Source: an uncultured Lentisphaeraceae bacterium
GTDB lineage: Bacteria; Verrucomicrobiota; Kiritimatiellia; RFP12; UBA1067
DNA: 64,000 nt
Direction: 5' to 3'
NCBI GenBank assembly: GCA_964482645.1
Contig: CAYZYQ010000001.1
Coordinates: forward strand, 31,271-95,270
Below are positions 40,663 through 58,958 of the stretch, piece after piece. Both the position numbers and the translations under genes were made by a program. Position 1 is the first letter of the stretch. Every line of letters begins with the position of its first letter. Below the pieces are notes generated by a model. The model saw nothing but the letters and a program-made list of their open reading frames with translations, was not told the origin of the DNA and searched no databases.

Positions 40663-42882
40663 ATGGCGGGCGGGGCGGTGAAAACGGATGCGCTTGAGAC
40701 GGTCGACGGAACCGTCAAGAGCGTTGTTTTTCGTAACGACGATACGGGGTTCACCGTCCTCCACGTGGTGACGGAGGAGGCGCGGTTTCGTTTGGGCGCA
40801 CGGGAGACGACGGTGCTGGGTACGTGCGCCGCCGTCTGGGAAGGTGAGGAACTCCACGCCGAGGGTGTTTGGGTGCAGGATCCCGTACGTGGGCGGCAGT
40901 TCAAAGCGAAGACGATTGCCTGCATACCGCCGAAATCGACGGAGGGGATTCGCCGTTATCTCGCCAGTGGATTGATTAAGGGCATCGGCCCCGTGTTGGC
41001 GAACCGCATTGTCGATACGTTTGGCGCGGACACGTTGGATGTCCTCGACCACCACTCGGGACGCCTCTCCGAAGTCAACAAGGTGGGGCCGCGCAAGATT
41101 GAGCAGATTCGGAAGTCCTGGCGTGACGCGCGGGGGATGCGCGAAGTGATGATTTTCACGCAGACCTACGGCATCTCGGTGGCGAAAACGACGAAGATTT
41201 ATCGGAAGTACGGACCTGATTCCATTGCCATCATCAAGGCCGATCCCTATCGTCTCTGTCGGGACATCTGGGGAATCGGTTTCGCAACGGCGGATCGCAT
41301 CGCCACGAGTGTCGGTCTGCCCATGGATTCACCCCTCCGTGCCCGCGCGGCAATTCTCCACACGTTGCGCGTCGAGGCCGAAGAGGCCGGGCATTGCTGG
41401 ACGTCCGAACCCGATCTGCTCCTGCACGCGCAGGAACTCGTCGGCATCTCCGTGGAAATCCTCTCCGCCGCCCTTGCGGTGGAGGTTGCCGAACGGCGCG
41501 TTGTCCGTGAAGACGACCGTCTCTATCTGTACGAACTCTATGCGGCCGAAAAGAGCGTGGCGGCGAGGATACGTCGTCTGCTCGCGACGCGCCCGGCTTT
41601 CGCGCCCATCGATCCCGACAAGGCGATTCCCTGGTGGGAAGGGCGGACGGGGTTCACGCTCGCGCCGGCGCAGATGCGGGCCGTGCGGACGACGTTGCGG
41701 TCGAAAGTCGCGATTGTCACGGGCGGTCCGGGCGTCGGCAAGACCACGATTATTCGGGCGCTTGTGGATATCTATCGCGCGCGCGGCGGCGTTCATGCGA
41801 TCAAGACGCTTTTGGCCGCGCCGACGGGCCGCGCCGCAAAGCGAATGTCGGAATCGACGGGCGCGGCGGCCCAGACGCTCCACCGACTGCTCAAATACAA
41901 TCCGCAGACGAATGAGTTTACGTTCAACGCGGAACGTCCGTTGCCGGGTGACGTGTTCATCTTCGACGAGATGTCGATGGTCGACATTCGCTTGATGCGT
42001 GATCTCATGGTCGCGTTGCCGGACGAAGCCACGCTCATTCTCGTGGGCGACACCGACCAGTTGCCGTCCGTCGGCCCCGGCAACGTTCTGCGCGACTTGA
42101 TTCGCAGTGGGGCGATTGCGACGTCGCAGTTGACGGAGATTTTTCGTCAGGACAGTTCGGGGTTGATTGTCCGCAACGCCCACCATGTCAACGCGGGCGA
42201 GGGGTTGGAGACGCGGAGCGGCGAGAGCGATTTCTATTTCGTCCCGCAGGAAGACCCGGAGAAAGCGCTTGCCGCCGCGCTCGATCTTATGACGGTACGT
42301 ATTCCGCGCCATTTCCATCTTGAGCCGTTGCAGGACGTGCAGGTACTCACGCCGATGCGGCGCAATTTGCTGGGGGCGGAAAACTTGAACACCGTCATTC
42401 AGCAACGATTGAACGGCACAGGACCGTCCATTCCGCGTGGTGGTACCGTGTTCCGTGCGGGCGATCGCGTGATGCAGTTGCGCAACAACTACGACAAGGA
42501 TGTCTACAACGGTGACGTTGGATTCGTGCAGAGCGTCGATTCGGGCAATCGGTCGCTCATCGTCCTCTTCGACGGGCGGCCTGTGGAATACGGCAGTGCG
42601 GACCTTGATGAGCTGACATTGGCCTACGCGACGACGATCCACAAGTCGCAGGGCAGCGAATATCCCGCCGTCATCGTCATTCTGCATCGCCAGCACTACA
42701 TGATGCTGCAACGCAATTTGCTCTACACCGCGATTACACGCGGCAAGAAGCTCGTCCTCGTTATCGGGTCGGGTTGGGCCGTCAAGAAAGCCATCGAGAC
42801 GAACACCGTCCGCGAACGGCGTACGTCCCTTGCCGACCGTTGTGCGGTCACACCGCCGGGCGGGCTTCCTGCGGAATCATGA
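40663..42882 (+). CDS. recD2: RecD2-like SF1B ATP-dependent DNA helicase
   Basis: N-terminal OB/HhH region (GIGPVLANRIV), Walker A GGPGVGKTT, VFIFDEMSMVD, C-terminal 2B/SH3 and motif VI (ATTIHKSQGSEYPAVI); 739 aa; last about 40 nt form repeat copy 1. Confidence 0.85.
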   Translation: MAGGAVKTDALETVDGTVKSVVFRNDDTGFTVLHVVTEEARFRLGARETTVLGTCAAVWEGEELHAEGVWVQDPVRGRQFKAKTIACIPPKSTEGIRRYLASGLIKGIGPVLANRIVDTFGADTLDVLDHHSGRLSEVNKVGPRKIEQIRKSWRDARGMREVMIFTQTYGISVAKTTKIYRKYGPDSIAIIKADPYRLCRDIWGIGFATADRIATSVGLPMDSPLRARAAILHTLRVEAEEAGHCWTSEPDLLLHAQELVGISVEILSAALAVEVAERRVVREDDRLYLYELYAAEKSVAARIRRLLATRPAFAPIDPDKAIPWWEGRTGFTLAPAQMRAVRTTLRSKVAIVTGGPGVGKTTIIRALVDIYRARGGVHAIKTLLAAPTGRAAKRMSESTGAAAQTLHRLLKYNPQTNEFTFNAERPLPGDVFIFDEMSMVDIRLMRDLMVALPDEATLILVGDTDQLPSVGPGNVLRDLIRSGAIATSQLTEIFRQDSSGLIVRNAHHVNAGEGLETRSGESDFYFVPQEDPEKALAAALDLMTVRIPRHFHLEPLQDVQVLTPMRRNLLGAENLNTVIQQRLNGTGPSIPRGGTVFRAGDRVMQLRNNYDKDVYNGDVGFVQSVDSGNRSLIVLFDGRPVEYGSADLDELTLAYATTIHKSQGSEYPAVIVILHRQHYMMLQRNLLYTAITRGKKLVLVIGSGWAVKKAIETNTVRERRTSLADRCAVTPPGGLPAES

Positions 42883-42890
42883 ACGCGAGA
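42859..42890. repeat. direct repeat copy 1 (core GGGCGGGCTTCCTGCGGAATCATGAACGCGAG) at recD2 3' end
   Basis: 32-nt core identical to 54352-54383 and with 1 mismatch to 57799-57830; flanks partially similar. Confidence 0.8.
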
Positions 42891-42926
42891 TGTCGATGTC
42901 CCGCGTGTAGTGTGATCCGGAACCAA

Positions 42927-43322
42927 CTATCGCGAACTCAATGACTCCGGTAACCAGATGTCTTCCCAGAAGAACGTCGGAAAGAAGTCGATTGTTTCGC
43001 TTGAATGCGAAACCGAGTTTCCCCAGATGCCGAGCGTGAAGCAGTCGGCAACCCCGTCGACAATGCGCACGGCGCACATGACGGCGCCGGGGACAATGCC
43101 GAAGACGCCTCCCAAAAAAGCGCCTGGCTCGGCGGCGGATTCATATCCCCTGCCGCCATAGTACGATATGTCCCTGACGATTTCGCCAGGACTTGTGACG
43201 ACGTTCACGAGTCCGCGGCCGACGCCGGTGGGCGGCGGCCATCCAAATTCATCCCCGTCCTCGCTGGCGGCAAGGCACGCCAGCGTCGTGCAGGCGCATA
43301 TCAGCATGCAAAGCTTTCTCAT
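42927..43322 (-). CDS. small secreted/lipoprotein, possibly exosortase-associated TIGR04073-like
   Basis: Signal peptide with LAC lipobox; GRGLVNVVTSPGEIVRDI segment resembles the conserved core of TIGR04073-family small proteins; last gene of the operon. Confidence 0.45.
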   Translation of the reverse strand: MRKLCMLICACTTLACLAASEDGDEFGWPPPTGVGRGLVNVVTSPGEIVRDISYYGGRGYESAAEPGAFLGGVFGIVPGAVMCAVRIVDGVADCFTLGIWGNSVSHSSETIDFFPTFFWEDIWLPESLSSR

Positions 43323-43337: not shown

Positions 43338-44165
43338 TTAGGCAAACTCGACCCGGGCCTTTCCAAGGCATTTGCCCTCGGTGGTACGAATCAGCGCCGT
43401 CTTGACCTTCGTGACTGTCATGGTGTTGTCCAGGGGGTGGGCGCCTAGGCCGTAAACAATGTGGAGGTCGGAATTGATTGGATCTCCAACGAGATCCCAA
43501 GTCACTTCGCAGCCTGCCGTCCGCCCGTCAAGCAGTTTTTTGAATTGCCGCCGAATGTCTGTCAGTTTCGCCTCGTCGTCGCGGAACAATGTGTAGAGTT
43601 CGACGTCAAACGCCTTGAAGCGGTTGGCGAACGCAATGTTGTTGTTCCTTGCAGAACTGACGGCTCCGATGAAAAGAGACACGATTCTCGTCGCGTCAAG
43701 GTTGCCACCCAGTTCCTTCCATATCGGCAGAACCTCAAGATGCAGGTCTTCGGGGATGAACGACGGCATCGGTTCGTTTTCGATTCTATAGCCCTTTCCT
43801 CGAAGCGCAGCGCATTCTATTGCCGTCTTCTTCAACTCGTTCTCAAGTTCGGCGATGCGCTCCCTGAGCCGATCCGCCTCTGAAGGCCTCGGCGGCTTCG
43901 CGTCGCGCTCTGCGAGTGAATGGTGTGAAATCCACTCCTGCCGGTTCCAGATTGCGCAGAGCTTTTGGAGACCGTCGGGCATGACTGCGCCTGGATGCTC
44001 TGAAAGGGTACGGGCGATGTCGGAGTCGGAGAGTCGCTTGTTGACGAAGCGCACCGCGAAGTCCTTGCCGATTTTTTCTTCAAGGGCGTCGGCGACGACG
44101 CACACCTGCCCGTCGTCGATCAGCCCTGTTTCGACAATGCGTGAAAGTACAGTGGTCAGGTTCAT
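43338..44165 (-). CDS. hypothetical protein (central coiled-coil)
   Basis: 275-aa ORF with lower-GC codon usage consistent with neighbours; 4-nt overlap with upstream gene; no recognisable motif. Confidence 0.5.
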   Translation of the reverse strand: MNLTTVLSRIVETGLIDDGQVCVVADALEEKIGKDFAVRFVNKRLSDSDIARTLSEHPGAVMPDGLQKLCAIWNRQEWISHHSLAERDAKPPRPSEADRLRERIAELENELKKTAIECAALRGKGYRIENEPMPSFIPEDLHLEVLPIWKELGGNLDATRIVSLFIGAVSSARNNNIAFANRFKAFDVELYTLFRDDEAKLTDIRRQFKKLLDGRTAGCEVTWDLVGDPINSDLHIVYGLGAHPLDNTMTVTKVKTALIRTTEGKCLGKARVEFA

Positions 44166-45286
44166 TCCGCATCAACCCCCGCATGAGACAGACATTTCGG
44201 TTCACCGTTTTTCGGCAGGCACATGACATACGCTGAACGGGCGTAGGTGATTCTTCTCGCGTTTTCGTTGCCCTCATGGATTTCCTTGTCGAAGTCATCG
44301 CCTTTTTTCGGCCAGCAAACCGAGATCGTGCAGTCGTCGCGCTTGCCGGCCATTTTGCTGTTCAGGTATCTTTCCACGCGTCTGCGGCATTCCTCCAATG
44401 TGTCTCCGCTGCCCATGGCCTTGGCGAAAGCATTGTCGAATGCCCTGAACCGTTCGACGAAGACATCCCTGTCAAGGGATCCCGTCAGAAGCCACATGAA
44501 GGAGTAGGCGCATTGAAGCCTGCGGCGTGAATCCTCGGAGTCGTCCGCATCCTCCCGATAGCCGAAGAGGTCGCACACATCCTTCGGCATTGCCTTTTCG
44601 ATTTCCAAACGCACTTTTTCAAGTTCGTCCTCGCACCCGGCCCTCACCTGCTCTATTTCCTCATTCTTCTCTTTGAGAGCCGATTCGTACTTCTGCCGAA
44701 TTTCCTCGATTTCGGCCTTATGCTCTGCCTCCATGGCGTTCTTTTCGGCTTCGCAGTTGCCCTGCTCCGTGGAAACTGTCTGCTCCATCGCCACCGCAAT
44801 GTCCATCTTGCGCTTTTCTTCCAGGCGGCATCTTTCATCGTCAAACGCCTTGCGCTCCGCCTCAAGCGTTTTCTTGGCCTCACACGCTTCCTCAAAGTCC
44901 TTCCGCGCCGATTCTTCAAGGCGCCTCTTGTCGCACTTCAACGCTTCGACCTCTTTATTCAGCGCTTCGACCTCTTCATTCAGATCGGCATTCTCCATGC
45001 GGTATCTTATTGTGTCGTCCAGAAGGAGGGAATAGGTCTTTTTATGCCGTTCAAGCTCCGTTTCAAGTTCGCGTTTCTTCTCATCGTTCAGTCTGTCGAC
45101 CTGTTCGTATCGGGCCTTGATTGCGTCCTTGATTGCATTCAGGCTGACGTTCAGGCTGGCGAGAACCTTGTTCGCGACTTTGTCGCATATGTTTTCGATC
45201 AGAATCTCGTCCGAAGAAGGTGGCTGGGAGGCCGTGGATGGAATCTCGGCGGCTTCGCTTTTGCTGGAAGTGTTTTCATCGGTCAT
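44162..45286 (-). CDS. coiled-coil protein, Glu/Lys-rich
   Basis: About 250 aa of heptad-like E/K/L-rich sequence (ELETELERHKK..., LNEEVEALNKEVEALK...) followed by globular Cys-containing C-terminal domain; 20-nt gap to upstream gene. Confidence 0.55.
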   Translation of the reverse strand: MTDENTSSKSEAAEIPSTASQPPSSDEILIENICDKVANKVLASLNVSLNAIKDAIKARYEQVDRLNDEKKRELETELERHKKTYSLLLDDTIRYRMENADLNEEVEALNKEVEALKCDKRRLEESARKDFEEACEAKKTLEAERKAFDDERCRLEEKRKMDIAVAMEQTVSTEQGNCEAEKNAMEAEHKAEIEEIRQKYESALKEKNEEIEQVRAGCEDELEKVRLEIEKAMPKDVCDLFGYREDADDSEDSRRRLQCAYSFMWLLTGSLDRDVFVERFRAFDNAFAKAMGSGDTLEECRRRVERYLNSKMAGKRDDCTISVCWPKKGDDFDKEIHEGNENARRITYARSAYVMCLPKNGEPKCLSHAGVDAE

Positions 45287-45306: not shown

Positions 45307-47691
45307 TCAGGCTATTTCAACGATGCGGTCCATCATGAACTCGCCGTCCATTGTGCAGACGCGGCACTCGACGTCTTCGGGATGCAGTTCCGTGGCGTCG
45401 CCTCTGAACGTGCCGGTTGCGGACACGACTCGCAGGGCGTTGTTCAGCGGATCGCTTTCAAGTCTCACCGAGACTCCGTCGCCGATTCCGCCATGTTTTT
45501 CGAGCGCTTCCGGTTTTATGCGGAGTTCGTACGACAGGATGGCTGTTTTCCCATATGGCGTCTTGCGCGCGAAAAGACGTCGCGGCGACGTCATCGGGAT
45601 GTCCTTCTGCAGTTCCCCGTCTCCGAATATCGGGCGCGTGAACGCGACGTGCTGCCCGTCGGGAACGATGCCCCACTTGAAGTCCGTGTTCACGACGTTG
45701 TTCGTGAACGACAGGTTCACGGATGCTTCGTTGCGCAGCGCATACAGCGCTCCGCCAAGCGCGGTCGAGATCTTCGAGTCGGTGATGCTCTTCGCGCCAT
45801 TGAAGAACTTGCCGCACCAGTCGCTGACGCGGTAGTCCTTCATGCTCCGGATTGCGGACGAGGGCAGGGCGATGCGTCTCTTGAACACGTTCTGCACTGC
45901 GGTGAACTCCATCGTCTTTCCGGAGAGGACGAGCATGTCGACGTCGTACGCGGCAATCAGATTCGCGAAGGAATGCGCGATGCTCCGAAATGTCTTCTCC
46001 GCGGTTGCACGGTAGGCGGAGACAATCTCCTGCGTAATGGCAATCTCGATTTCAAGGTCCTTGACTTTCTCAACGTCATCGATTTTCAGTTTTGCAATGC
46101 GGCACCAATCGGTGGCGTCGTCGTTCGAGAACTTGTGCCGGAAGACAGACAGGTCGTCATCGCGGATGTCGTCATTCGGATATCGCCGCAGAAGTTCGTC
46201 CAGTTTGATGGCGAGCGAAAGGGCAAGGTCGAACCAGAACGTCTTTGTCAGCGATCTGACGTGCGATCGCATTTCCGACGAATGGTAGTTCGCGCGAAGG
46301 TCTGCGTCCTTCGTTCCGAATTCATGCTCCAATTTCTGCGCAACGGCCTTGAACCCTGCCTTGGCAACGCAGTTCTCGATGAACGCGAAGATGAACGCAT
46401 CTCCGGCCGTGTTCACGCCATCGCGGCAGAAGAGGTCTATCGTGGCGCTGTACGGATCGACGCCGGCCGTTTCCTCCGATGCGGACACGGCGGATATCGA
46501 GAGATCGGACGTTCCGCCTCCGACGTCGATGACGGCAATCCTGGCCTCGCGTCCAATCGGAGACCTGCGGCCTATGGACTGGAGCCAGAAGAACGCACTC
46601 GGGTTTCTGCGGATTTCGTTGTAGGCGAAGAGAGAGAGCACGGACGTCGCCTCGTCGATGTCCGAGGTCAGCTCCACTTCCGTCTCGGGAAAATTCCGCA
46701 GATAGGCTCGCAGTCCATTCTGCAGCCGTTCGCGGTACAGTTCCAGCTCGCGCGGCAGAAGCGTGGAAGGATATGTGACGTGAATGCGGGAGATTCTGCG
46801 GCAGCGCGAGTCGCATGATTTTTTCTTGAACTCCGCCGAAGAGACGTAGTAGCACCCCTGTTCGTACAGTTCCGCCAGCATGGCGCCGAGCATGGCGGCG
46901 GGTGGAAGACGGTTCATGTCGATTCCGCAGTCCATTCCAAGTTCTGCCGCGATGATTCCGTTCAGATGTTCCACTTTCGGCTGCTCGGCGTCGACAGGCA
47001 TTCTTGAGGCGACCCATTCGCGTGACGAAGGATCGGCGTCCCAGAAATACCTTTTGGGGCTTGAAAGCGTATAGCGTCCCGCTCCTTCGCGACCTCTGAA
47101 CTGATAGTTGTTCCATTCCGCAAAGCGTCCGAGTCTGACAAACGACAGCCGTCCCTCGTTGTCGCAGAATTCACCGTCGGGGCGTGAATCCGCGTTCGTG
47201 AGCGACACCAGGCTTTTGAACGCGCCCTTCAGGGGACTCTCGCTTTTCCGCTGCTTGCACGCGATCGGCAATTCGTATACCGACGGGGCGCTTTCTCCAA
47301 GACCGTCGACGAGAAGAGCCACCGTGCGCGTGTTGCCAAGATCAATTGAGAGCATGCAGTCGACGACGTTGGACGGCGTCGCGATCTCATAACCCTCCCA
47401 GTCCTCGAAGTCGCCTAACTTTCTCCTGGCGTTTGGGTCTTTGCGGTCGCCGGGACGCGGCAGGGAAGGGCGCGCGTCGACCGTGAGGTACAGTATGTAC
47501 CTGGTCGTTTCCGTATCTCCGCCTACGGGTCTGCTCTTTTCCGTGGATGTCACGTACAGCAGACGATGGGGCACGACCCCTCCGTCCGATTCGGCTGCGA
47601 ACGCGCCCTGTTCCAGATTGTTAAACACGCTTTCCTCTAGATCAAGTTTCAGCGTGCAGACTTCGCCTTTGTAGATTGCAGATAATGCCAT
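45307..47691 (-). CDS. Hsp70/actin-fold ATPase-like protein (about 795 aa)
   Basis: Phosphate-1-like MLSIDLGNTRTVALLVDG and phosphate-2-like IAVIDVGGGTSDLSI motifs in the spacing expected for an Hsp70-type nucleotide-binding domain; start ambiguous (ATG 47691, or 47793/47838 overlapping upstream gene). Confidence 0.65.
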   Translation of the reverse strand: MALSAIYKGEVCTLKLDLEESVFNNLEQGAFAAESDGGVVPHRLLYVTSTEKSRPVGGDTETTRYILYLTVDARPSLPRPGDRKDPNARRKLGDFEDWEGYEIATPSNVVDCMLSIDLGNTRTVALLVDGLGESAPSVYELPIACKQRKSESPLKGAFKSLVSLTNADSRPDGEFCDNEGRLSFVRLGRFAEWNNYQFRGREGAGRYTLSSPKRYFWDADPSSREWVASRMPVDAEQPKVEHLNGIIAAELGMDCGIDMNRLPPAAMLGAMLAELYEQGCYYVSSAEFKKKSCDSRCRRISRIHVTYPSTLLPRELELYRERLQNGLRAYLRNFPETEVELTSDIDEATSVLSLFAYNEIRRNPSAFFWLQSIGRRSPIGREARIAVIDVGGGTSDLSISAVSASEETAGVDPYSATIDLFCRDGVNTAGDAFIFAFIENCVAKAGFKAVAQKLEHEFGTKDADLRANYHSSEMRSHVRSLTKTFWFDLALSLAIKLDELLRRYPNDDIRDDDLSVFRHKFSNDDATDWCRIAKLKIDDVEKVKDLEIEIAITQEIVSAYRATAEKTFRSIAHSFANLIAAYDVDMLVLSGKTMEFTAVQNVFKRRIALPSSAIRSMKDYRVSDWCGKFFNGAKSITDSKISTALGGALYALRNEASVNLSFTNNVVNTDFKWGIVPDGQHVAFTRPIFGDGELQKDIPMTSPRRLFARKTPYGKTAILSYELRIKPEALEKHGGIGDGVSVRLESDPLNNALRVVSATGTFRGDATELHPEDVECRVCTMDGEFMMDRIVEIA

Positions 47692-47716: not shown

Positions 47717-48193
47717 TTACTTTGAATCGCATTGGAACAGGCTTTCAAGGCGCATTCGCCAGGGCTTTGTCTGTCCCTGCCCAAGGACGGCATTTGCGTC
47801 CTTGATTGAACGGTGCGTATCGTCGGTCGACGTTTCACCGCGCATCACGCGCATGAAGAACCGCGCGAGATGATCGCGGATTTCCTTCTCCGATGCGTTC
47901 CAGTTGCAGAGTTCGTCGCTGAACGTCTGGAACTCATTCGATTCGCCATCGTCGCCGAGACAGCGGTCGCAGCGCTTCCGATAGAACGCCTGCCGTTCGG
48001 AAGACGGCCCGGCGGCCTTGATGAACTCCTTTAGGATTTCCGCAACGGCGTCCGTGTCCACGTACTGGTCTTCCAGGTCAAGGGCGATGAAATGGTCTCC
48101 AACCAGTTCCGTCTCGTCCCATATCAGCCGGAGATACGTCTCTTCCGTGGCTCCGGCCTTTTTTTCCCTCTCGAAATCTTCTCTAAGTCCCAT
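47717..48193 (-). CDS. hypothetical acidic protein
   Basis: 158-aa ORF tightly packed between tubulin-like and Hsp70-like genes; no recognisable motif. Confidence 0.5.
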   Translation of the reverse strand: MGLREDFEREKKAGATEETYLRLIWDETELVGDHFIALDLEDQYVDTDAVAEILKEFIKAAGPSSERQAFYRKRCDRCLGDDGESNEFQTFSDELCNWNASEKEIRDHLARFFMRVMRGETSTDDTHRSIKDANAVLGQGQTKPWRMRLESLFQCDSK

Positions 48194-48206: not shown

Positions 48207-51164
48207 TCAGATTCCGTGGATATCCAGCGTGGACGTTATCGTCGCCTTTGCCGTATTGAGCTCCGCGATTTCCGCGTCCGTTATTGAAAAACGGAGGGCG
48301 TTGAAGATGTCTGTTTCGCAATTCAGCACGCTCGTGAACCTCGCCTTTGGATAGAACGATACGAAACCCTTCGGACTGCGGATCCACGCGAGAATCTTTC
48401 CCGTCCAGTCGACGGAAATAAAGTCGAACTGGCACGTGCCATCGAGATTGTCCACCACGCCCAGTTCGTGAAGCCTTGCGCCCGGGAGTCCAAACTTGTC
48501 TCCGTCCTTTGTGAACGTGAACTCGACTTTGGGCTTGTGCAGCAGGACGGTGGCGTCCGGATTCGCGGTGTTTTTCTTGTACGCCTTCCAGGACTCGTTG
48601 AGTCTGCACTCGATCGATTCCATGATGACGCCGAAACGGATCATTTCGGACAGCGTCATGGTCGTTCGCGACGACGGCGCCATGAGACCGGCCCTTATCC
48701 ACGCCTGTTTTACGGCGGGCATGGACGAATAGAGCCTTGAGAGCGTGTCGTGCGCCGTGAAGTCGATGCCGAGAGTCCCCATCCAGAGCCCCTGCACGTG
48801 TATAGGCGTCGCGTCCTTCTTCCTGCCCTTGAACAGCGGCGACGCGGCGGTTTCCTCGTCCTTCCACATGTTCGGGTTCATGATGCCCGATGAATGGTTT
48901 ACGGACAGGAAGGAATCTGCCGAGTTTGCCGTGTTCGGCATGGTCTTCAGACCGAGGACGTCGCAGACGTCGCCATTCGTCATCTTGAAGCCAGGCGGCG
49001 TTCCGCCCTGCTTGATTACGTAGTGGTAGTGGAACGTCTGGGAGTCCGGCGCCGCGAATTCCGGCGCATTCGTCCTGCAGCCGATTGAGTTCTTTGCCAC
49101 GGAGAAGTCCTGAAGCGTTGCACCCGAAAGAGGGTTGGCGCCCGGCTCCAGCTGGTCTGCAAGTTCGATGAACTTGTTGAAGACGCTTTCCTCCGCAAGC
49201 TCCAGGATGGCGTCCGCCGTATGGTCGTAATTGAGGAGTAGTTCGGCGGAGTCGTCGCGTGCGTTCATGTCCTTCACGGTCTGCACGTTCAGTCTCTTGT
49301 CGTTGACGCACTTGCGGTACACGATCGACATCACGATGCGGAATGGATCGAATGCGAGCTGTTTGCGCTTCTCGTCCGGGAGCGGGGCAAGCGGTTCCAC
49401 GAGAAGACCGTCTATGATGTGCGGATTCGTTCCGCCGCGCAGCTCCTTGCACTGTCTGTGCAGTTTCGCCTTCAGTTCGTCGCACTCTTTCCTGAAGTCG
49501 GAGAGTTCGCGCGAAAAGGCGCCTGTGTCGATGAACGACGTGCGCGCGCAGCGGCAGGCGCAGATGTAGAAGCCGAGCAGTTCGCGGAAGCGCTTGTCAA
49601 ACGCATCCACCACTTCCCTGAAGACTTCGTCCTCTTTCGAGAGGCCGAACACCCAGTCGCGTACGACGCGATTCTGCTTCCGCGTCGAGGCCAGCGCGAT
49701 CGCATTGTCCAGCGACTTGACCATCTCGGCCGCATACTGGGAGACGTTTGCCTTAAGCCCCTGGATCTTGTCATGAAGTTCTTTGTATCCCTGGGCGATG
49801 AGTTCCACGTTGACGTCGCCGTTCCAGTCTGCATACTTCGAACAGGCGAGGAGGAGCATGAGTTCCTTGGCGGGGACGACCCTGTACTCCGGAACGCCGT
49901 CTTTCACCGCGTCAAGCAGTTGCCTGAAGGAGTTCCTGAATTCTCCAAGGGACCTCTCGTTGATGGCGCCGCGTTCTTCCGCCTGGAGCAGCGCTTTCAG
50001 CGGAATGCACTGCGCGGGATCGACGCCGGCAAGGGCTTTCCTGTATTCGGGCAGCTGGGCGTCGATGAACACGCTTTTGACGTTCTCCAGGATTGCGGGG
50101 GCAGCTCCGCTTCCGTTCAGAAATCCCGTCCGCCCGTCCTTGCCGTCAAGGACGGCGATGAGGCTCTTGTAGAACCAGTTCTTCAGCGAGACCATCCGTC
50201 CGCTTTTCATCACGAACATGTTGAATGCGGAAAAACACGGATCCTCCTTGTCCACGTGGTACGCGGGGCCTGACTGCCCCGCGATCAGCCTGTCCACCCA
50301 GCGCGGATGGAATTCCTCCACGTGGAGGTACGTGGCGGCGAAGAGCTGTTCGGCCAGGAGCGACGTCACAAGCGGCCGGCGTCCATGCGGCGTGGGAAGC
50401 ACGTAGAGGTTGCCCATGGGCAGGGATGAACCCGAAATGCCGCGGTCTGCAAGCACGTGTCCGTCGGGCTTCGCGCCGGTGAACAGCGGAAACGCTTGGT
50501 CTTCCTTCTGCACCCACACGGGGACTTTGAAGCCGGGGCGTTCCGATTCCAGCCGTCGCCGCCAGCTTGCCGTCTGGAGGTCCTTGAACATCGAGATCAT
50601 GTTCAGCGCGATTGGATAGTTGCCCTCTCCGGGAATCGCCTCCGGCATCAGGAGAAAGCCCAGCACCACCACGTTCTTGAAGTCGGGGTTTGCGTTTCTC
50701 TTCCGCAGAATCTGCAGGTCGAGGAAATCGCATATGTTCAGGAACAGGCCTCCGGACGTTCCACCGAACGCAGAGCCCACCACGACGATCTGGTCGTCCG
50801 GTTCTAGCGGGAATTCGTTCTCGATTTCAGCCCAGGTCTTTCTGATGAACTCGGCCGCCTTGCCGGAGACAGAACGGTCGCCGCCGACACCGCCCGCAGG
50901 AACGGTCTTGGCCGTCCATGACGGCTGGAAGCTCTTTTCCACGTCTCCGTCGTCGTCCGATATCTTCAGCACGTAGCCCTTCACGCGCGACGTGTGCAGG
51001 CGCGTCCCAAGGGCGTTGAAGGCGTCGATCTCCGACGGCATCGAGTCGATCGCCACGTAGCGGTCGTCGAACCTTCCAAACAGATTCTCCTCGCACAGGC
51101 GTTTGATGAGCGCCATTACGCCTTTCAACGACTCGCTTCCGGATGCAATGAAAATTCTCTTCAT
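48207..51164 (-). CDS. tubulin/FtsZ-like GTPase domain protein with about 700-aa helical C-terminal extension
   Basis: N-terminus RIFIASGSESLKGVMALIKRL...VAIDSMPSEIDAF resembles the FtsZ/tubulin N-terminal strand-loop-helix and DxxAL; VVVGSAFGGTSGGLFLNICDFL resembles the T4 GGGTGSG loop; 985 aa. Confidence 0.6.
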   Translation of the reverse strand: MKRIFIASGSESLKGVMALIKRLCEENLFGRFDDRYVAIDSMPSEIDAFNALGTRLHTSRVKGYVLKISDDDGDVEKSFQPSWTAKTVPAGGVGGDRSVSGKAAEFIRKTWAEIENEFPLEPDDQIVVVGSAFGGTSGGLFLNICDFLDLQILRKRNANPDFKNVVVLGFLLMPEAIPGEGNYPIALNMISMFKDLQTASWRRRLESERPGFKVPVWVQKEDQAFPLFTGAKPDGHVLADRGISGSSLPMGNLYVLPTPHGRRPLVTSLLAEQLFAATYLHVEEFHPRWVDRLIAGQSGPAYHVDKEDPCFSAFNMFVMKSGRMVSLKNWFYKSLIAVLDGKDGRTGFLNGSGAAPAILENVKSVFIDAQLPEYRKALAGVDPAQCIPLKALLQAEERGAINERSLGEFRNSFRQLLDAVKDGVPEYRVVPAKELMLLLACSKYADWNGDVNVELIAQGYKELHDKIQGLKANVSQYAAEMVKSLDNAIALASTRKQNRVVRDWVFGLSKEDEVFREVVDAFDKRFRELLGFYICACRCARTSFIDTGAFSRELSDFRKECDELKAKLHRQCKELRGGTNPHIIDGLLVEPLAPLPDEKRKQLAFDPFRIVMSIVYRKCVNDKRLNVQTVKDMNARDDSAELLLNYDHTADAILELAEESVFNKFIELADQLEPGANPLSGATLQDFSVAKNSIGCRTNAPEFAAPDSQTFHYHYVIKQGGTPPGFKMTNGDVCDVLGLKTMPNTANSADSFLSVNHSSGIMNPNMWKDEETAASPLFKGRKKDATPIHVQGLWMGTLGIDFTAHDTLSRLYSSMPAVKQAWIRAGLMAPSSRTTMTLSEMIRFGVIMESIECRLNESWKAYKKNTANPDATVLLHKPKVEFTFTKDGDKFGLPGARLHELGVVDNLDGTCQFDFISVDWTGKILAWIRSPKGFVSFYPKARFTSVLNCETDIFNALRFSITDAEIAELNTAKATITSTLDIHGI

Positions 51165-51797: not shown

Positions 51798-54176
51798 TTA
51801 GACTGCCCGTCGGAACTCGATTTGTCCGACAGGCTCCATTGCCACTTTGTTTTCAAACAGCAGGTAGATCCCCTCGTCGAAGACGACCGTGTTCTCCCCG
51901 ACGGTCTTCTTGTCCGTGCCTGCAATGGGCATCAGTTGGACGTCCTTGCCGGGGGCGCGCAGTTCAAATTCGACCGCCTCCGTCTCCCCCTTGCGGCAGA
52001 TGACGACGAGGTCGACCGGACAGCCGCATTTCCCGTCCAGTCGCACGGCGCGGTTGAGCCTGACGTCAAGCACGACTTGCGTATCGGACTCCTTGTTTGA
52101 ACGGTAGAGGATCTGCGCGGCAGTTCTGCCGCGAACGAGCTTGGCGACAACCACGCCCGTACCTGCGACAAGAGCCGGCAGCAGCACGAACGGAAGAACG
52201 TTGCCTCCGCCATTCGGCGTTCCGCCTTCGACCGGGATGGGCACTCGCTTCCACTCTTCGAGTTCGGCCTTGGCCGTTGCCAGCTCGTTGTCGTTTACGG
52301 CCGCCTCCACTTTTTTCCGTAGCGATTCAAGTTCGGCGCGGTTCTGGATGACGTCGTCGCCATTTGCCGAATTGTCCAGGCGCCAGACTCGCCTGTTCAG
52401 GAGTTCATCTTTCTTTCCTTGAAGTGCGGCCTCCTTGACGCGCCGTTTTTCTTCATCGTCCTTAAACTTTTCGGCCTCTTGATCGGCTTCGACCTGTTTA
52501 GGTGTCTTTGTGGCTGACTTCGTGGCGGGTTTCCATACATTGAATGCGTTCACCGCCTCGTCGAGGGAATCTTTGTCTTTTGCGGCTTTTATCCTCTGCA
52601 GAATCGTAGAGAGGTCTTCGTGATTGAAGATTTGATCCTCGGAATATACGGCCAGTTGTCTCTCCACAATACTAATGGCATTCGTACGCAATTCTTCAAA
52701 CCTGCGGCGGGCTATTTCCGCCTCTATCTCCTTGTTCCTCCGCGCCATGCTTTCCTCCAGTGTAGAAAGGCGTCCCGCCAGTTTTTCAAGCTCGGAGATG
52801 AACAAGGCGATGTCCTTCGTCGACAGCCTTGGGTCGTTGTCGATGAAGCCCGTGCACTTTGCAAGTTGATTGGAGATGTCGTTACAGTCGGAAGCAAAGG
52901 CGCTTCTGTCGCTCGCCGGCATTTTGGAAAGGCGTTCTACGGTGGAGTGCACTTTGATGGCGATGCCCTTCTTCTTTTCCTTGAGTTCGCGCAGGCATTC
53001 AAGGCGCGTGTTCTCTTCGGTCACGGATGCGACGAGTTCTGCGATGGAATCCAGTTTTACCTTGATATACGGCTTGTCAGGTGCAGCGGCAAGGTCGGCG
53101 AGCTGTTTCACGGCGTCGCCTTTCTGCCCTTCCTTCCGCGCCTTTGCGAGGGCGTTTGTGACATCGGAGAAGAGACGTTCTCTGTCGCGAAGACATCCGT
53201 AGTCGAACAGACTCGAATCCCATGTGCGCGTATACGTGATTCCGGCGGGCGAGACAATTGACGCCACCAGTTCATTCTGTCCGAGAACGGGCGTCAGGTT
53301 CGTCGAGTCTTCGTCAAGCGAAATAGACTGCCCATTGTGCCTTATGGTCGTCGTCCATGTTTCCCTTCTTGGCAGTCGGCTTGTTCGCCTTACGGCGATA
53401 TGCGTGTCTTCTGGATTGCAGACAAGCGCCTCCAGACCGGCTTTCTCCGTTTCCGAAAGCGCGTAGTAATGGTCGACGATGGCGTTGGCGACGTCGTTGG
53501 CGTTCGTGTCCAGGGCGACGCGAAGGAAATCTCGCCATTTTTCATGCGACCAGTATGGCTTGAAGATGCCCGCGTTCACTGATTCTGCTGGCGCGTGAAG
53601 CATGAAAAACATGATGTCGTGTTCTTCGTCGAGATGAAACGCGCCATGTCGCGTAGTCAGGTCCGGGTCGTTGGAAATGATGCAGACGACGACATTTCGG
53701 GCAGATTTTTCGTTGTCGAGCACCTGCTTCACGAGGATGTCCCGTCCCCACTCCTCGTCCTCTTTCCCGAATGCGCCGAAATCGGAACGGCTGGCTTTCC
53801 TTGAAAGCGAAAATGGCATGACGATGCCGGGTTTCAGCAGATATGCCGTCCCCGTGTTCACTTCGACGTAGTTTCCGAAGCCGCGCCGGCGCAGCCCTGC
53901 TTCAATCGGATTGTCACGATCGGCCAGAAGCGACCGCAATGCGTTGATGGCACGGACATAGGCGTGGGACGTTCCGTAGTCCATGTTCGCGTCCTTGTTG
54001 CGCTTGTGTCCGTCCACGTAGAAATGCACACTGACATCCCGTCGCCCGTCCAGCGACATGTTTCTCTCTATGGGCGGTACCGCCATGTCGTTCAATGCGG
54101 CCGCGCAAGTCCATGCCGCAAGCAAAATCGCGACTATGCCATATGATTTAAACATAAATTCTCTTCCTTCGCACAA
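51798..54176 (-). CDS. secreted/membrane-anchored protein: signal peptide, about 300-aa ectodomain (possible degenerate vWA), long coiled-coil, single TM, about 110-aa C-terminal domain
   Basis: Signal peptide MFKSYGIVAILLAAWTCAAA; ectodomain with DVSVHFYVDG...NVVVCIISNDPDL; about 250 aa Lys/Glu-rich coiled-coil; TM VLPFVLLPALVAGTGVVVAKLV; first gene of operon. Confidence 0.6.
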   Translation of the reverse strand: MCEGREFMFKSYGIVAILLAAWTCAAALNDMAVPPIERNMSLDGRRDVSVHFYVDGHKRNKDANMDYGTSHAYVRAINALRSLLADRDNPIEAGLRRRGFGNYVEVNTGTAYLLKPGIVMPFSLSRKASRSDFGAFGKEDEEWGRDILVKQVLDNEKSARNVVVCIISNDPDLTTRHGAFHLDEEHDIMFFMLHAPAESVNAGIFKPYWSHEKWRDFLRVALDTNANDVANAIVDHYYALSETEKAGLEALVCNPEDTHIAVRRTSRLPRRETWTTTIRHNGQSISLDEDSTNLTPVLGQNELVASIVSPAGITYTRTWDSSLFDYGCLRDRERLFSDVTNALAKARKEGQKGDAVKQLADLAAAPDKPYIKVKLDSIAELVASVTEENTRLECLRELKEKKKGIAIKVHSTVERLSKMPASDRSAFASDCNDISNQLAKCTGFIDNDPRLSTKDIALFISELEKLAGRLSTLEESMARRNKEIEAEIARRRFEELRTNAISIVERQLAVYSEDQIFNHEDLSTILQRIKAAKDKDSLDEAVNAFNVWKPATKSATKTPKQVEADQEAEKFKDDEEKRRVKEAALQGKKDELLNRRVWRLDNSANGDDVIQNRAELESLRKKVEAAVNDNELATAKAELEEWKRVPIPVEGGTPNGGGNVLPFVLLPALVAGTGVVVAKLVRGRTAAQILYRSNKESDTQVVLDVRLNRAVRLDGKCGCPVDLVVICRKGETEAVEFELRAPGKDVQLMPIAGTDKKTVGENTVVFDEGIYLLFENKVAMEPVGQIEFRRAV

Positions 54177-54231: not shown

Positions 54232-54338
54232 TGTCAACTGCAAGTTTTGGAATTGTCATTTGTCAGAGTGAATGTACCTATGGCAGTCGCATCTATTCTG
54301 GCAAGCGACCTACAAATGTACGTGTAAAGGCGTTGTGC

Positions 54339-54383
54339 ACTCACGCCACGGGGCGGGCTTCCTGCGGAATCATGAACGCGAGG
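54339..54383. repeat. direct repeat copy 2
   Basis: CACTCACGCCACGGGGCGGGCTTCCTGCGGAATCATGAACGCGAG; 41/41 identical to 57786-57826. Confidence 0.85.
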
Positions 54384-54418
54384 TGACGGGCGACGAATTG
54401 ACTGCGACGAGCTTTTGG

Positions 54419-55684
54419 TTACGCTTTCGTTGAGAACAACTTGTCCAGCTGCCCTCTGACGTCGAGGCCGCCTTCGCTCTTGTACACCGTGGCGTAGAGG
54501 CACGAACCGCCTGACTTCGCCGCCCAGAGGCGGCCGATGGCGTCCTTTTCCAGCGTGTCCCTGGCGTTGCGCAACTGTTCGCCCTTGTATTCGACCGCGA
54601 AGAGGCGTCCGTCGTCAAGGACGCCCACGAAGTCCGGGAAGAACCGCGTGTGCGCCAGCGGCAGCCAGAACGACTCGTCGCACGTGTCGAGATTGCGCAG
54701 CCACGTCCTGACTTTCGGATGGGCGTCAATCAGCTTTGCGCACTCGAACTCTTCGCCCTCGCCGTATTTCAGCTGCCCGTCGAACGCCGGGATGCGGTGC
54801 GTTCCAAGAAAGTGCTTGTTGAAGCGGTAGTTGCCACGGTAAACCTCAAGCATCGTCTGATTGCGATAGAGCGCGTCGTCCAACGCAAAAGCCTTGTCCA
54901 CGTTCAGTTCAACACGATGGACGCTGTCGAAGAACACCGCTTGATAGGCCTTCTTCCGGACGATTCTCGCGGCCTCGGCAATATGGCCGTCGAGACAGTT
55001 TCGCAGTTTGTAGCGGAAGCAGTAGAGCTGTGCCGGCGTGAATCCCCTGGCCGTCACAAGATGATTGACGACCCCGGCGATCCAGCCGCGCATCACCTCC
55101 GGCGGAATCGCATTGTGCCGCGTCAGGGCGGCGAGTTCATTGACCACGTCTCCCGGCGCAAGATCCGTCTTGACCTCTTGCAGGAACGTCATCTGTTCGT
55201 GCGCGAACTGCTGTTTGATTTCATTTCCGTTCAGTTCGAGAACAAACGTTTCGCCCTGTTCCCTTATCTCGAATTCGCCGTCCGGCAGCACGGCGTGGTT
55301 CGCCTCCAGTTCCCTGCCCAGATCCTCGCCCGCCAGTTCCTCCGCCTCTTCGCCGTCGAAGCAGAGTTCGCCCTGGACGTCTGCGCAGAGTTTTGGAAAC
55401 GTCATCTTGACGGAGTTCGCGGGAACGGCCTCGACGGCCTCTGACTTCTTCTCTGCGACCTTCTTCAGGAATTGGGCGGCGAGTGCGGTCTGGCCGTTTT
55501 CATGCAGGAGGTTCGCGATTTTGGATGCGGATGCCTCGGAGATGTCCGCCCTTACCGCAATCGTCCCCGAACCGTCGGCGTTCGCTGTCACCTCGACGTC
55601 TTCGGGCATTTCGGCGGCAATGGCCTCGTACACTGGAGTTTTGGAGTTCGGGAGACGCGAGGGTGTTCCGCAATTCTCCCCCAA
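54419..55684 (-). CDS. PD-(D/E)xK restriction-endonuclease-like domain protein (possibly truncated)
   Basis: C-terminal FFPDFVGVLDDGRLFAVEYKGEQL shows D...E-x-K nuclease core similar to type III restriction Res C-terminal domains; no helicase motifs in N-terminal half. Confidence 0.5.
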   Translation of the reverse strand: MGENCGTPSRLPNSKTPVYEAIAAEMPEDVEVTANADGSGTIAVRADISEASASKIANLLHENGQTALAAQFLKKVAEKKSEAVEAVPANSVKMTFPKLCADVQGELCFDGEEAEELAGEDLGRELEANHAVLPDGEFEIREQGETFVLELNGNEIKQQFAHEQMTFLQEVKTDLAPGDVVNELAALTRHNAIPPEVMRGWIAGVVNHLVTARGFTPAQLYCFRYKLRNCLDGHIAEAARIVRKKAYQAVFFDSVHRVELNVDKAFALDDALYRNQTMLEVYRGNYRFNKHFLGTHRIPAFDGQLKYGEGEEFECAKLIDAHPKVRTWLRNLDTCDESFWLPLAHTRFFPDFVGVLDDGRLFAVEYKGEQLRNARDTLEKDAIGRLWAAKSGGSCLYATVYKSEGGLDVRGQLDKLFSTKA

Positions 55685-55931: not shown

Positions 55932-56591
55932 TTACAAAAGCTCCCAAGTGAAAATAACGGAGTCAGAAACGTCAAGGTCGTCAGGATTGATGTCTGGTAC
56001 AGAACAAGCAGACGCCTCTTGCCAACAACCCAGAACTTCAATTCTAGTCCTTCTATACACATTTAACTCATGCCACGAATAGTTAATGTTTATAATGTCG
56101 CCAAGCTTCTTGCCAACACCACGACTGAGTCCTTCGGCAATCTTACGGGCGTTCTCGGAGGCCTTAGCGAACAATTCAGCTTGTACAAACGAAGCGTCTT
56201 TCACCGTAAATCGAACTTCAAACTCAGGATTGACACCGGACTTTACAATGCCCCCCAGAATTGCACCTATCATTTCGCGGCTGAAATCAAAACCAAACTT
56301 GAGTTTTTGGTGAATCTTGTATCCAGCAAACACACGCTTCTTTGTGCGTTCACCATTCGCATCATCAATCCACTCCCATTCAGTATCGACATCAAAATCC
56401 GTGGTTCGCAAATCCTCGGCATCGACATTGACTTCTTTCAATGCATTTTGCAGAAATTGAATCTTGTGTGCCGCATCGGACATACAATTCGAATAATCAT
56501 GGCCGCGTGTCACTATGTCGATAAGAATATTGACATAATCCGGCTTTACTTTCACATTTGCCGCACTGCGGACAGTTATTTCTTTTCTCAT
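55932..56591 (-). CDS. SIMPL (DUF541) domain protein
   Basis: N-terminus MRKEITVRSAANVKVKPDYVNILIDIVTRG matches the SIMPL-domain start; low-GC codon usage unlike host. Confidence 0.55.
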   Translation of the reverse strand: MRKEITVRSAANVKVKPDYVNILIDIVTRGHDYSNCMSDAAHKIQFLQNALKEVNVDAEDLRTTDFDVDTEWEWIDDANGERTKKRVFAGYKIHQKLKFGFDFSREMIGAILGGIVKSGVNPEFEVRFTVKDASFVQAELFAKASENARKIAEGLSRGVGKKLGDIININYSWHELNVYRRTRIEVLGCWQEASACSVPDINPDDLDVSDSVIFTWELL

Positions 56592-57785
56592 TGCCTCTAC
56601 TCCTTTTTTAGTTAAACAATGTCACTACCATGCAATAGTGATGGTGTGATGTGAGTAAAAAAGTCGTTGCCTTCAGGTCGCTTTCCCGTGTACCATACAC
56701 GGTGTCATGAAAGAACCCTGAAAGCAACGACGAAGAGAATGATACCAATTCTGGCGCAGATAGTCCAACATACTTGCCAGGATACAAAATCGAGGAACTC
56801 GCGGCCGAAGAGAAAATCAAGGCCAGGGAGTTTTCCTGCTCCGCGCAGGTGTACCTGTTGATGCTCGGCCAGCTTGCGCATGTCTTCTCTTTGAATGAAC
56901 TCGTCGACCCCTCGACGATATTCTCCGGGGAGCTCCGCCACATACGCGGCATCGAGGCCGTGAAGCTCACGACGTTCTCCCACGCCAACAGGACGCGGGC
57001 GAATGGCAGATATGGGCGGCGATGCTGACGCATCTTGTCCTGTACTACATCAAATGGAAGAACAAGGTGGTTTCCTCGTATACGCGGTTCGCGGCGATGA
57101 TCAAGAACACCATCTGGTTGAAGCGCCCTCTTGAGGCGGGGATCAATTTATATTGCAGAACACCTGGCCAAAGCAGCCCTCCGCCAGACCGCAGCATGCC
57201 GTATTTGCCGGGGTTTGAGCGGCTTGCCATTGGATAGCACCCGGCGACAATTGCAACGACAACGGCGTCTATCGCATGACATAAACACACTCACATTGAA
57301 AATCGCCTTGCGAAACTGTCGCTTTGGGCCGAAAAACCACCTAATACGCTATCCGTTCGCATAGTTTTGGAACCCTGTTGTATGGTATTGGAGATGCGAG
57401 GTCGTTCCACAATTCCCTCGAACTCCGGGACTCCAGAACTTCCGCAACGAAAGCAACAAACTTCCGCGCCCGCATGATGCAACCCGGCGCGACAGGGACG
57501 TCGCGCCCTACTGGATGGGCAGACGCCCCGCCATGCGGTAGCCGAACAGACGTTCCGCCATTCGGCAGGGCGTGCAGATGTTTCGCCATTCGGTAGGGCG
57601 GGGCGTCCCGCCCCGCCGTTGACGTGCGCGACGGGGAACTTGCCGACGATGCGGCCGGCCTTGACGAAGAATCTTCAGCTCATGGTCGTCGCGCTGGAAT
57701 GTTTCGTCCGCAAAAAAAAAGGGGATCCTCCAAAACATGTGCATCTTCCCAAAGCCAATGCGCCCGAAATCCGGAATAGCTGTAC

Positions 57786-57830
57786 ACTCACGCCACGGGG
57801 CGGGCTTCCTGCGGAATCATGAACGCAAGG
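57786..57830. repeat. direct repeat copy 3 (forms the 3' end of antiporter gene)
   Basis: CACTCACGCCACGGGGCGGGCTTCCTGCGGAATCATGAACGCAAG. Confidence 0.85.
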
Positions 57831-58807
57831 TAGGCGAGGAAGAGAAGAATCCAGAGGGCGCCTTCCAGACGGTTGATCGTACCGTCCTTCTTGGGATTGC
57901 GGAAGTTGAGGCCGAAGACGGCGATGAGAATCGAGAAGAACGTCATGACGGGCAAGTCGCGCGTCAGGATGTAGCCGGAAAATCCGCTGAACGGCGAAAT
58001 CGATCCGGCAACGCCCACGACGACGAGCGCGTTGAAGAAGTTCGAGCCGACGATGTTGCCGACGACGAACTCGTTTTCGCCTCTCCGTGCCGAGGCGATT
58101 GACGACGCCAGTTCCGGCAGGGACGTGCCGGCCGCCACGATGGTCAGGCCGATGAGGAGTTCGCTCACGTGCAGAACGTCGCGCGCGAAGTCCACGCATC
58201 CCCACACCATGACGTGGGACGAAAGGACGAGGATTGCCAACCCGAGAACGAGGCGCGTCCATTCGCGAATGCCGCTGAACGGCACGGTAGGCGTTGGCGC
58301 GGCGACGGGTTCGGCTGCGGTGAGGGGCTTAGCCTCCCGTTGGTCGTACCAGCAGTAGATGGGCATCAGAACCGCGAACGCCACAAGCAGGCCAAGGGCG
58401 TTGAAACGGTCGAACGAGCCGTCTCGCACGGCCCACCAGGAAAGGACGGACGTGATGAGCAACAGGGGGACGGCAAACCAGTTGACCGACGACTTCACCT
58501 TGATGGGCCAGAAGAGGGCCGTCACGCCGAGGATGATGCCGATGTTGAAAATGTTGCTGCCGTAGGCATTGCCCAGCGACAAGTCGGCATGGCCGCTCGC
58601 GCTTGCAATGGCCGAGACGGCCATTTCTGGCGCACTCGTGCCGAAGCCGATGATGACCATGCCGACAATGAGCGGCGAAAGGCCGAAATGACGAGCAAGG
58701 ACGCTGGCCGCGTCCACGAACACGTCCGCACTCTTTGCGAGGACGAAAAGACCACCGATGATGAAGATGAGTGACAGGATGAGGGGGATGTCTGTACTGA
58801 TACTCAT
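57788..58807 (-). CDS. Ca2+/Na+ antiporter (CaCA/YrbG family)
   Basis: Duplicated alpha-repeat motifs GTSAPEMAVS and GTSLPELASS; about 10 TM; AAGGAG RBS before ATG 58807. Confidence 0.85.
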   Translation of the reverse strand: MSISTDIPLILSLIFIIGGLFVLAKSADVFVDAASVLARHFGLSPLIVGMVIIGFGTSAPEMAVSAIASASGHADLSLGNAYGSNIFNIGIILGVTALFWPIKVKSSVNWFAVPLLLITSVLSWWAVRDGSFDRFNALGLLVAFAVLMPIYCWYDQREAKPLTAAEPVAAPTPTVPFSGIREWTRLVLGLAILVLSSHVMVWGCVDFARDVLHVSELLIGLTIVAAGTSLPELASSIASARRGENEFVVGNIVGSNFFNALVVVGVAGSISPFSGFSGYILTRDLPVMTFFSILIAVFGLNFRNPKKDGTINRLEGALWILLFLAYLAFMIPQEARPVA

Positions 58808-58870: not shown

Positions 58871-58958
58871 TGGCGGAGAGAGAGGGATTCGAACCCCCGA
58901 AGCCTTGCGGCTCGCCGGTTTTCAAGACCGGTGCATTCAACCACTCTGCCATCTCTCC
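58871..58958 (-). tRNA. tRNA-Ser (anticodon TGA)
   Basis: Reverse complement GGAGAGATGGCAGAGTGGTTGAATGCACCGGTCTTGAAAACCGGCGAGCCGCAAGGCTTCGGGGGTTCGAATCCCTCTCTCTCCGCCA folds as cloverleaf: 7-bp acceptor, anticodon loop CTTGAAA, long variable arm, TTCGAAT T-loop, encoded CCA. Confidence 0.85.

Follow-up and report, generated by a model that had tools for sequence, protein, structure and literature searches.

The Pfam model Tubulin_2 (PF13809) was built for the FtsZ-like 1 (FtsZl1) proteins of Makarova and Koonin, who proposed a membrane-remodelling role for the operons that encode them (PMC2875224). These proteins have been known since 2010 and in 2023 were still handled as a divergent uncharacterised outgroup (PMC2875224, PMC9871819); in the literature searched they are regarded as the tubulin/FtsZ superfamily's most divergent branch, and the descriptions found for Tubulin_2/FtsZl1 members are computational only, with no experimental characterisation of any of them. 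A second relevant system is the srfABC operon of Xenorhabdus, reported to be cytotoxic and insecticidal (PMC6950479). Here we describe g3, a gene in a 64,000-nt stretch of DNA from an uncultured Lentisphaeraceae bacterium (contig CAYZYQ010000001.1, positions 31,271 to 95,270; this whole stretch is called the window, and positions are counted from its first letter). Its product is very probably a highly divergent tubulin/FtsZ-superfamily member of the Tubulin_2 (FtsZ-like 1) type, in both fold and family identity, and it is encoded in a conserved eight-gene cassette beside an SrfB-like ATPase. The family-level identity of g3 is already in the databases; the conserved cassette with its two NTPases is the new, testable part.

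The gene is an ATG-started open reading frame (ORF) of 985 codons plus stop on the minus strand, and the plus-strand frame across the same interval is riddled with stops. A sequence-only reading of the window had proposed a 985-aa protein at 48207-51164 with an N-terminal tubulin/FtsZ-like GTPase signature; the ORF is real, minus is its reading strand, and the strings quoted in that reading are found at residues 3-23 (RIFIASGSESLKGVMALIKRL), 35-49 (RYVAIDSMPSEIDAF) and 127-148 (VVVGSAFGGTSGGLFLNICDFL) of the protein, which is laid out as follows:

48207..51164, minus strand: g3, very probably a Tubulin_2/FtsZl1-type tubulin/FtsZ-superfamily protein, 985 aa
50130..51164, minus strand: N-terminal tubulin/FtsZ-like GTPase region, residues 1-345
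49065..50129, minus strand: all-helical middle region, residues ~346-700, including a CACRC motif at 535-539 (model and motif search)
48210..49064, minus strand: C-terminal alpha/beta region, residues ~701-985, with an invariant QGxWxGT strand at 790-799 (model and alignment)

Tubulin_2 was the only sequence family that detected g3 (E = 4.1e-5, 23.4 bits), with a match spanning the T4-H5 region. When 27 aligned relatives were scored individually, 23 matched Tubulin_2 (E <= 0.1, best 1.2e-9) and four matched the classical Tubulin/FtsZ GTPase model PF00091, weakly. A word-indexed search of 5.8 billion proteins recovered 31 homologues in all, 17 of which have a precomputed PF13809 assignment, and one homologue, 52% identical to g3, is named 'tubulin-like domain-containing protein [Kiritimatiellae bacterium]' by NCBI. 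Exhaustive HMMER searching of 1.84 billion cluster representatives with a full-length family profile returned 65 proteins at E <= 1e-3, of which 64 also pass <= 1e-10. The family is made up of proteins of 900-1140 residues and is sharply bounded in this search, without a tail of weaker matches; its named hosts are metagenome-assembled genomes of Kiritimatiellae, Victivallales and Lentisphaeria. No relative was found among IMG/VR viral contigs, INPHARED phages and PLSDB plasmids, and PHROGs, PADLOC and NCBIfam returned nothing for g3. Judged by sequence, the family is a borderline case for the Tubulin_2 model. The sequence-only reading had offered a new family or a distant member of the FtsZl-1 clade and had named scoring against tubulin-family profiles as a check; the Tubulin_2 match, well above chance for g3 and its relatives, and the near-invariance of the motifs in 63 sequences agree with it.

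The conservation of the putative nucleotide site was counted over the N-terminal 400 residues of 63 aligned sequences, with identities down to ~21-23%. The main elements are:

51129..51155, minus strand: T1-like segment IFIASGSES, residues 4-12 (family form IFIA(S/V)GSES)
50874..50894, minus strand: T3-like loop GGVGGDR, residues 91-97 (G92 in 62, V93 in 61, G95 in 63 and R97 in 62 of 63)
50748..50777, minus strand: T4-like signature GSAFGGTSGG, residues 130-139 (G134 in 63, G135 in 61, T136 in 59 and G139 in 63 of 63)
50238..50381, minus strand: H7-like helix with E272, then a candidate T7/H8 region with WVDR at 289-292 and E307-D308 (putative assignment)

Within the T1-like segment, G9 is invariant (63/63) and S10 is near-invariant (55/63). 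D40, in the AIDSD segment that corresponds to FtsZ VNTD, is kept in 61/63 sequences, P174 in 62/63, and Y183 and N188 in 62/63 each; residue 272 is Glu in 60 and Asp in the other three, and D291 of WVDR is D or N in 56/63. The near-invariance of the T3- and T4-like loops across the family argues for a functional nucleotide site, and GGVGGDR fits the GxGxGxxP/N type of T3 loop. A motif search found no P-loop in g3. The 63-sequence N-domain profile was also aligned by hhalign with E. coli FtsZ alone and with an 8-sequence alignment from plasmid-borne ftsZ genes; in these alignments, which are not significant overall, the T1-like segment pairs with FtsZ VIGVGGGGG and GGVGGDR with FtsZ GLGAGAN.

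An AlphaFold2 model of g3, covering residues 2-985 and built from the 27-sequence alignment (positions are cited in protein numbering), reached a predicted local distance difference test score (pLDDT) of 84.7 and a predicted template modelling score (pTM) of 0.79. Foldseek, a check proposed in the sequence-only reading, ranked CetZ2, CetZ and tubulins top (E 4e-4 to 1e-3). By structure comparison, tubulin and FtsZ beat all Rossmann folds by 1-6 Z units over 245-311 aligned residues versus ~180, so that the N-terminal domain ranks with tubulin/FtsZ topology over generic Rossmann folds; TubZ and PhuZ were among the best matches. The order S1-H1-S2-H2-S3-(T3)-H3-S4-(T4)-H4-S5-H5-S6 is recognisable in the model, with inserts at ~66-90 and ~209-250. 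After S6 come an H7-like helix of 17 residues (263-279, containing E272), a 29-residue segment that holds WVDR and E307-D308 and includes a low-pLDDT loop (287-296), a strand at 311-320 (FNMF) and a helix at 323-340. This order of elements agrees with H7-T7/H8-S7-H9 of FtsZ; a T7 loop and a full activation domain are both putative in g3. Of the H7 core helix and T7 loop for which the sequence-only reading had proposed to inspect a model, an H7-like helix is seen and the loop is not confirmed, its candidate region being of low pLDDT. The same reading had described the tail as helical, Cys-rich and without obvious relatives. It is helical for residues ~346-700 (about 14 helices), and residues ~700-985 are mixed alpha/beta in the model; the Cys content was overstated, at 16 residues (1.6%) with one conserved CACRC motif (535-539); and relatives of the tail exist, confined to the small g3 family.

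g3 comes third in a run of eight genes that share one direction and are separated by -4 to 25 nt. The other members, in the order of transcription, are:

51798..54155, minus strand: g1, 785 aa, with a long, charged, coiled-coil-like stretch besides two hydrophobic segments; orthologue in contig L005
51190..51783, minus strand: g2, 197-aa membrane protein with about three hydrophobic segments
47717..48193, minus strand: g4, acidic and soluble, 158 aa; its gene invariably separates the tubulin-like gene from the SrfB-like one
45307..47691, minus strand: g5, 794-aa SrfB-like ATPase with an Hsp70/actin (ASKHA) fold
44162..45286, minus strand: g6, 374-aa acidic coiled-coil protein with a C-terminal domain common to g7
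43338..44165, minus strand: g7, 275 aa, paralogue of g6 in the C-terminal globular domain, its start overlapping the g6 stop by 4 nt (ATGA)
42927..43322, minus strand: g8, 131 aa, signal-peptide-like N-terminus, TIGR04073-like (8.4e-7, below the cut-off)

In independent metagenomic contigs (L005-L010 and L027-L029), each of the eight genes has an orthologue, and the order is collinear. The core order of tubulin-like gene, small gene, SrfB-like gene and coiled-coil gene is kept in Victivallales-type loci at 23-29% identity, and an SrfB-like gene follows the tubulin-like gene in all 17 retrieved loci that extend far enough downstream, even at 23% identity. At the g6/g7 positions, other lineages have proteins of 255-455 aa. 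The best-conserved member of the cassette is g8, with 70% identity to its counterpart in L005 versus 57% for the tubulin-like protein, which is unexpected for a peripheral component. Hydrophobic segments occur in g1, g2 and g8, and neither these nor signal peptides are found in g3-g7. Those of g1 lie at ~13-33 and 658-682, numbered in a 792-aa ORF starting at 54176. g1 belongs to an orphan family with 15 homologues and no Pfam domain; in the Victivallales and human-gut versions of the locus the protein at its position has PKD domains (L001 6313-8919; L015 6546-8933), which point to a possible extracytoplasmic sensing or adhesion part. No von Willebrand factor A (vWA) domain, diverged P-loop GTPase, OmpA-like domain or Ser/Thr kinase was matched among the eight proteins in Pfam and NCBIfam, and a scan for promoters and terminators gave nothing above shuffled expectation.

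The partner gene g5 matches Pfam SrfB (PF07520) at 5e-39 and has every ASKHA motif (IDLGNTRT, TYPS, DEA, IDVGGGTSD, NxAGD, SGKTxE and DSKISTALGGAL); its model, built from database homologues, has a pLDDT of 90.7 and a pTM of 0.91. Canonical SrfB proteins (~1000 aa) are 21-25% identical to g5 and adjoin Virul_Fac/SrfC, which has the P-loop GASQQGKS, together with Sel1 and vWA proteins. Skermanella mucosa has a canonical SrfB gene on its chromosome (L012 8001-17097), and after it come genes for SrfC/Virul_Fac (GASQQGKS at residues 71-78), for a Sel1-like and a vWA protein and for an ABC/FtsX pair. It may be that the srf operon, instead of being a classical toxin, is itself an NTPase-plus-vWA machine. 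When compared with SrfC (Virul_Fac), g3 proved unrelated; in the cassette, the tubulin-fold GTPase occupies the place of the P-loop NTPase that stands beside SrfB elsewhere. Since the tubulin-like/SrfB pairing parallels that of SrfB with P-loop SrfC, it suggests a generic role for SrfB-type ATPases as partners of large NTPase scaffolds. Neither a tubulin-like/SrfB-like pairing, nor a described SrfB fold, nor a tubulin-like defence system was found in the literature searched.

The sequence-only reading had remarked that the gene lies on an island, and this is borne out by a dip in GC content (52-58% over ~43-58 kb versus 60-66% across the rest of the window) and by 58-nt direct repeats that bracket the cassette. 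Between recD2 and the Na+/Ca2+ antiporter gene, which converge, the repeats mark off two inserts in tandem:

42838..42895, unstranded: direct repeat copy 1, left cassette boundary, overlapping the 3' end and stop of recD2
54331..54388, unstranded: direct repeat copy 2, right cassette boundary, 88% identical to copy 1
57778..57835, unstranded: direct repeat copy 3, with 76% identity to copy 1, forming the actual 3' end of the gene for the Na+/Ca2+ antiporter (...FMIPQEARPVA*)
54419-55684, minus strand: C-terminal half of a Type III restriction enzyme, ORF of 404-421 aa (PADLOC REase_III, profile 505-895 of 898, E = 8.7e-38)
55932-56591 and 56608-57589, minus strand: the part of the second insert with the lowest GC (52%), containing a SIMPL/DUF541 ('oxidative stress defense protein'-like) gene and several small ORFs without annotation
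58871-58958, minus strand: tRNA-Ser(TGA), immediately upstream of the antiporter gene

Copies 1 and 2 enclose exactly the eight-gene cassette at a spacing of 11,493 nt (an 11.5-kb insert). Copies 2 and 3 enclose the second segment, with the SIMPL/DUF541 gene and the restriction-enzyme ORF; the latter, with no mod gene nearby, looks like the remnant of a decayed restriction-modification system. An Rfam scan gave only the tRNA and a weak sub-threshold sX4 match that overlaps it and is probably just the tRNA. Many independent short-read assemblies (Logan contigs L021-L025) end 5 nt past the recD2 stop, inside copy 1, and separate contigs of 11.4-11.5 kb carry g1, matching the repeat spacing. These assembly ends are consistent with repeats breaking the assemblies, or with presence/absence variation of the island. 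A recD2/antiporter allele free of the island was sought and none was found: every long contig has the island, and the short-read contigs end at the repeat.

Elsewhere, defence-candidate genes are often found near the cassette. It adjoins a PDC-S37/Hhe helicase (E = 0) in L009 and lies near PDC-M26A (3.6e-33) in L005 and near IS66 in L008. A Macro-domain gene is inserted inside the cassette right after the SrfB-like gene in L029 (9486-10013), a Lon_C+Sel1 protein follows the g8-like gene in L027 (13220-15697), and a Sel1+FGE-sulfatase protein accompanies the cassette in L016 (7342-9522). Lineage-specific add-on domains of these kinds (Macro, Lon_C, Sel1, FGE-sulfatase) are common in conflict systems.

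We hypothesize that g3 is a divergent tubulin/FtsZ GTPase which, in a conserved eight-gene island operon, forms a GTP-dependent membrane scaffold serving as a conflict module; taken as a whole, this explanation seems to us somewhat on the probable side. In the mechanism we envisage, g3 would bind GTP via its conserved T1-, T3-, T4- and T5-like elements, and the nucleotide state would drive self-association or a conformational change of g3, a large scaffold. The membrane proteins g1 and g2 would fix this scaffold to the cytoplasmic membrane, where g5, as an Hsp70/actin-fold ATPase, and the coiled-coil proteins might together assemble, remodel or reset it. This GTP-dependent scaffold mechanism could, in our estimate, equally well prove right or wrong. 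For the role of the cassette, we tentatively favour an accessory, horizontally moved, envelope-associated conflict module, directed against phages or mobile elements, because the cassette is a rare, horizontally placed insert whose neighbours elsewhere are often conflict-associated, and in the window it lies next to the restriction-enzyme remnant; this role is possible rather than probable. A more specific proposal, on which we would place less weight still, is that the cassette is an undescribed membrane-anchored conflict or envelope machine of PVC (Planctomycetes-Verrucomicrobia-Chlamydiae) bacteria around an obligate cytoskeleton-superfamily NTPase pair, in which the activation domain of g3 might be split or replaced by the 640-residue tail and the GTP-dependent assembly of g3 might be triggered or reset by the Hsp70/actin-fold ATPase.

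Several observations weigh against the explanation as a whole. The Tubulin_2 score of g3 lies under the 27-bit Pfam gathering threshold, and a sequence search of the PDB with g3 and with the family profile gave no true relative, only spurious matches such as aryldialkylphosphatase (E ~ 2e-3). The hhalign comparisons of the N-domain with FtsZ proper were not significant (E 0.05-0.07); their T1-T5 pairing is sensible, and because they are unreliable after T5 they do not map T7 on g3. No T7 loop could be assigned in the model either, and strands equivalent to S8-S10 do not follow contiguously. The T1-like loop has a single invariant Gly (G9) and not a Gly run (GGGxxG), so that the glycine-rich T1 loop of the sequence-only reading does not hold. 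The T4 parallel drawn in the same reading stands in part: FGGTSGG (133-139) is near-invariant across the family, and as a regular expression the PROSITE tubulin signature [SAG]GGTG[SA]G is unmatched, 5/7 positions agreeing. The literature searched gave no measurement of GTP binding, hydrolysis or polymerisation for a Tubulin_2 protein. As to mobility and conflict, no integrase was found in either island insert, no cassette protein had a significant match to the PADLOC-DB v2 models (marginal matches only, g5 to PDC-M61B at 0.0023 and g6 to JetC at 6.5e-4), and the guilt by association extends to defence-type neighbours in only about 3/7 independent contexts.

One alternative is a protein whose N-terminal domain is a generic Rossmann-like fold or a degenerate pseudo-GTPase, serving as a static scaffold without tubulin-like GTP-dependent assembly. 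We consider this unlikely, given the margin by which tubulin and FtsZ outrank all Rossmann folds (1-6 Z units, 245-311 versus ~180 residues), the almost invariant T3- and T4-like loops family-wide and the placing of the relatives in Tubulin_2 by Pfam. Within the tubulin fold, the structural likeness to TubZ and PhuZ and the location of g3 on an inserted island might together suggest a DNA-segregation tubulin that partitions its own mobile element. Neither a gene for replication or for a TubR-like DNA-binding protein nor an array of centromere-like repeats lies in the cassette, the island is integrated in the chromosome, g3 is about 2.5x the size of TubZ, and the viral, phage and plasmid collections searched (IMG/VR, INPHARED, PLSDB) are empty of relatives, all of which makes this the remotest of the alternatives.

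An exported SrfABC-like toxin or virulence module acting on another cell is suggested by the membership of g5 in Pfam SrfB and by the reported toxicity of srfABC in Xenorhabdus (PMC6950479). It is quite improbable here: the cassette has neither SrfA nor SrfC, g3 has no similarity to SrfC, canonical SrfB pairs instead with P-loop Virul_Fac/SrfC and Sel1 and vWA proteins, g3-g7 are without signal peptides or hydrophobic segments, and both large proteins have intact cytoplasmic NTPase motifs. The rival to be taken most seriously is a non-defence machinery for membrane remodelling or for vesicles or the envelope, in which assemblies of g3 attached to the membrane would serve membrane shaping or trafficking in PVC bacteria. 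The membrane or secreted nature of 3/8 cassette proteins, the resemblance of g8 to the exosortase-associated TIGR04073 and the confinement of the named hosts to Kiritimatiellae, Victivallales and Lentisphaeria speak for it; the rare and patchy occurrence of the cassette (65 clusters), its place in a low-GC repeat-bounded insert and not in a core locus, the lack of the vWA, P-loop GTPase, OmpA and kinase partners that characterise FtsZl1 and the frequency of defence candidates or IS elements among its neighbours speak against it. We judge this machinery somewhat doubtful, and nearly as likely as the conflict role.

Whichever role applies, the g3 subfamily is a compact test case, with a confident model and strongly conserved nucleotide-site motifs, and with its fixed set of partners it belongs to a tractable unit of eight genes. 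Should the cassette turn out to serve defence or the envelope, an FtsZl1-type protein and the widespread 'virulence factor SrfB' family would both gain a first function.

Among the known systems, the archaeal CetZ proteins (PDB 3ZID, 4B45) have 11-14% sequence identity with g3. At ~350-390 aa they are without its 640-residue tail; they carry the canonical GGGTG signature and a T7 loop, and they have no gene context in common with it. TubZ and PhuZ differ in size and in the tail, as well as in the TubR and centromere that the g3 cassette lacks and in their occurrence on phages and plasmids, where g3 has no relatives. The likeness to srfABC lies in g5, a member of the SrfB family, and in the pairing of SrfB with a large NTPase gene; the canonical partner SrfC has a P-loop, whereas the partner in the cassette is tubulin-fold and unrelated to SrfC, and the set of SrfB, SrfA and SrfC is not present, no cassette protein matching Virul_Fac. 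The closest resemblance is to FtsZl1 (PMC2875224): g3 is likewise a protein of ~1000 aa with an N-terminal FtsZ-like GTPase domain, a long helical region and a C-terminal domain, the T6-H7-T7 region is hard to identify in both, and both have multi-gene operons with membrane proteins and a patchy distribution. The C-terminal part of g3 is alpha/beta, in contrast to the mostly alpha part of FtsZl1 (PMC2875224), and in place of the vWA, P-loop GTPase, OmpA and kinase partners its operon has an SrfB-like ATPase, coiled-coil paralogues and a TIGR04073-like protein. With its score below the Pfam cut-off and a family of its own of 65 clusters among 1.84 billion, g3 is best filed not as a clean member of FtsZl1/Tubulin_2 but beside it.

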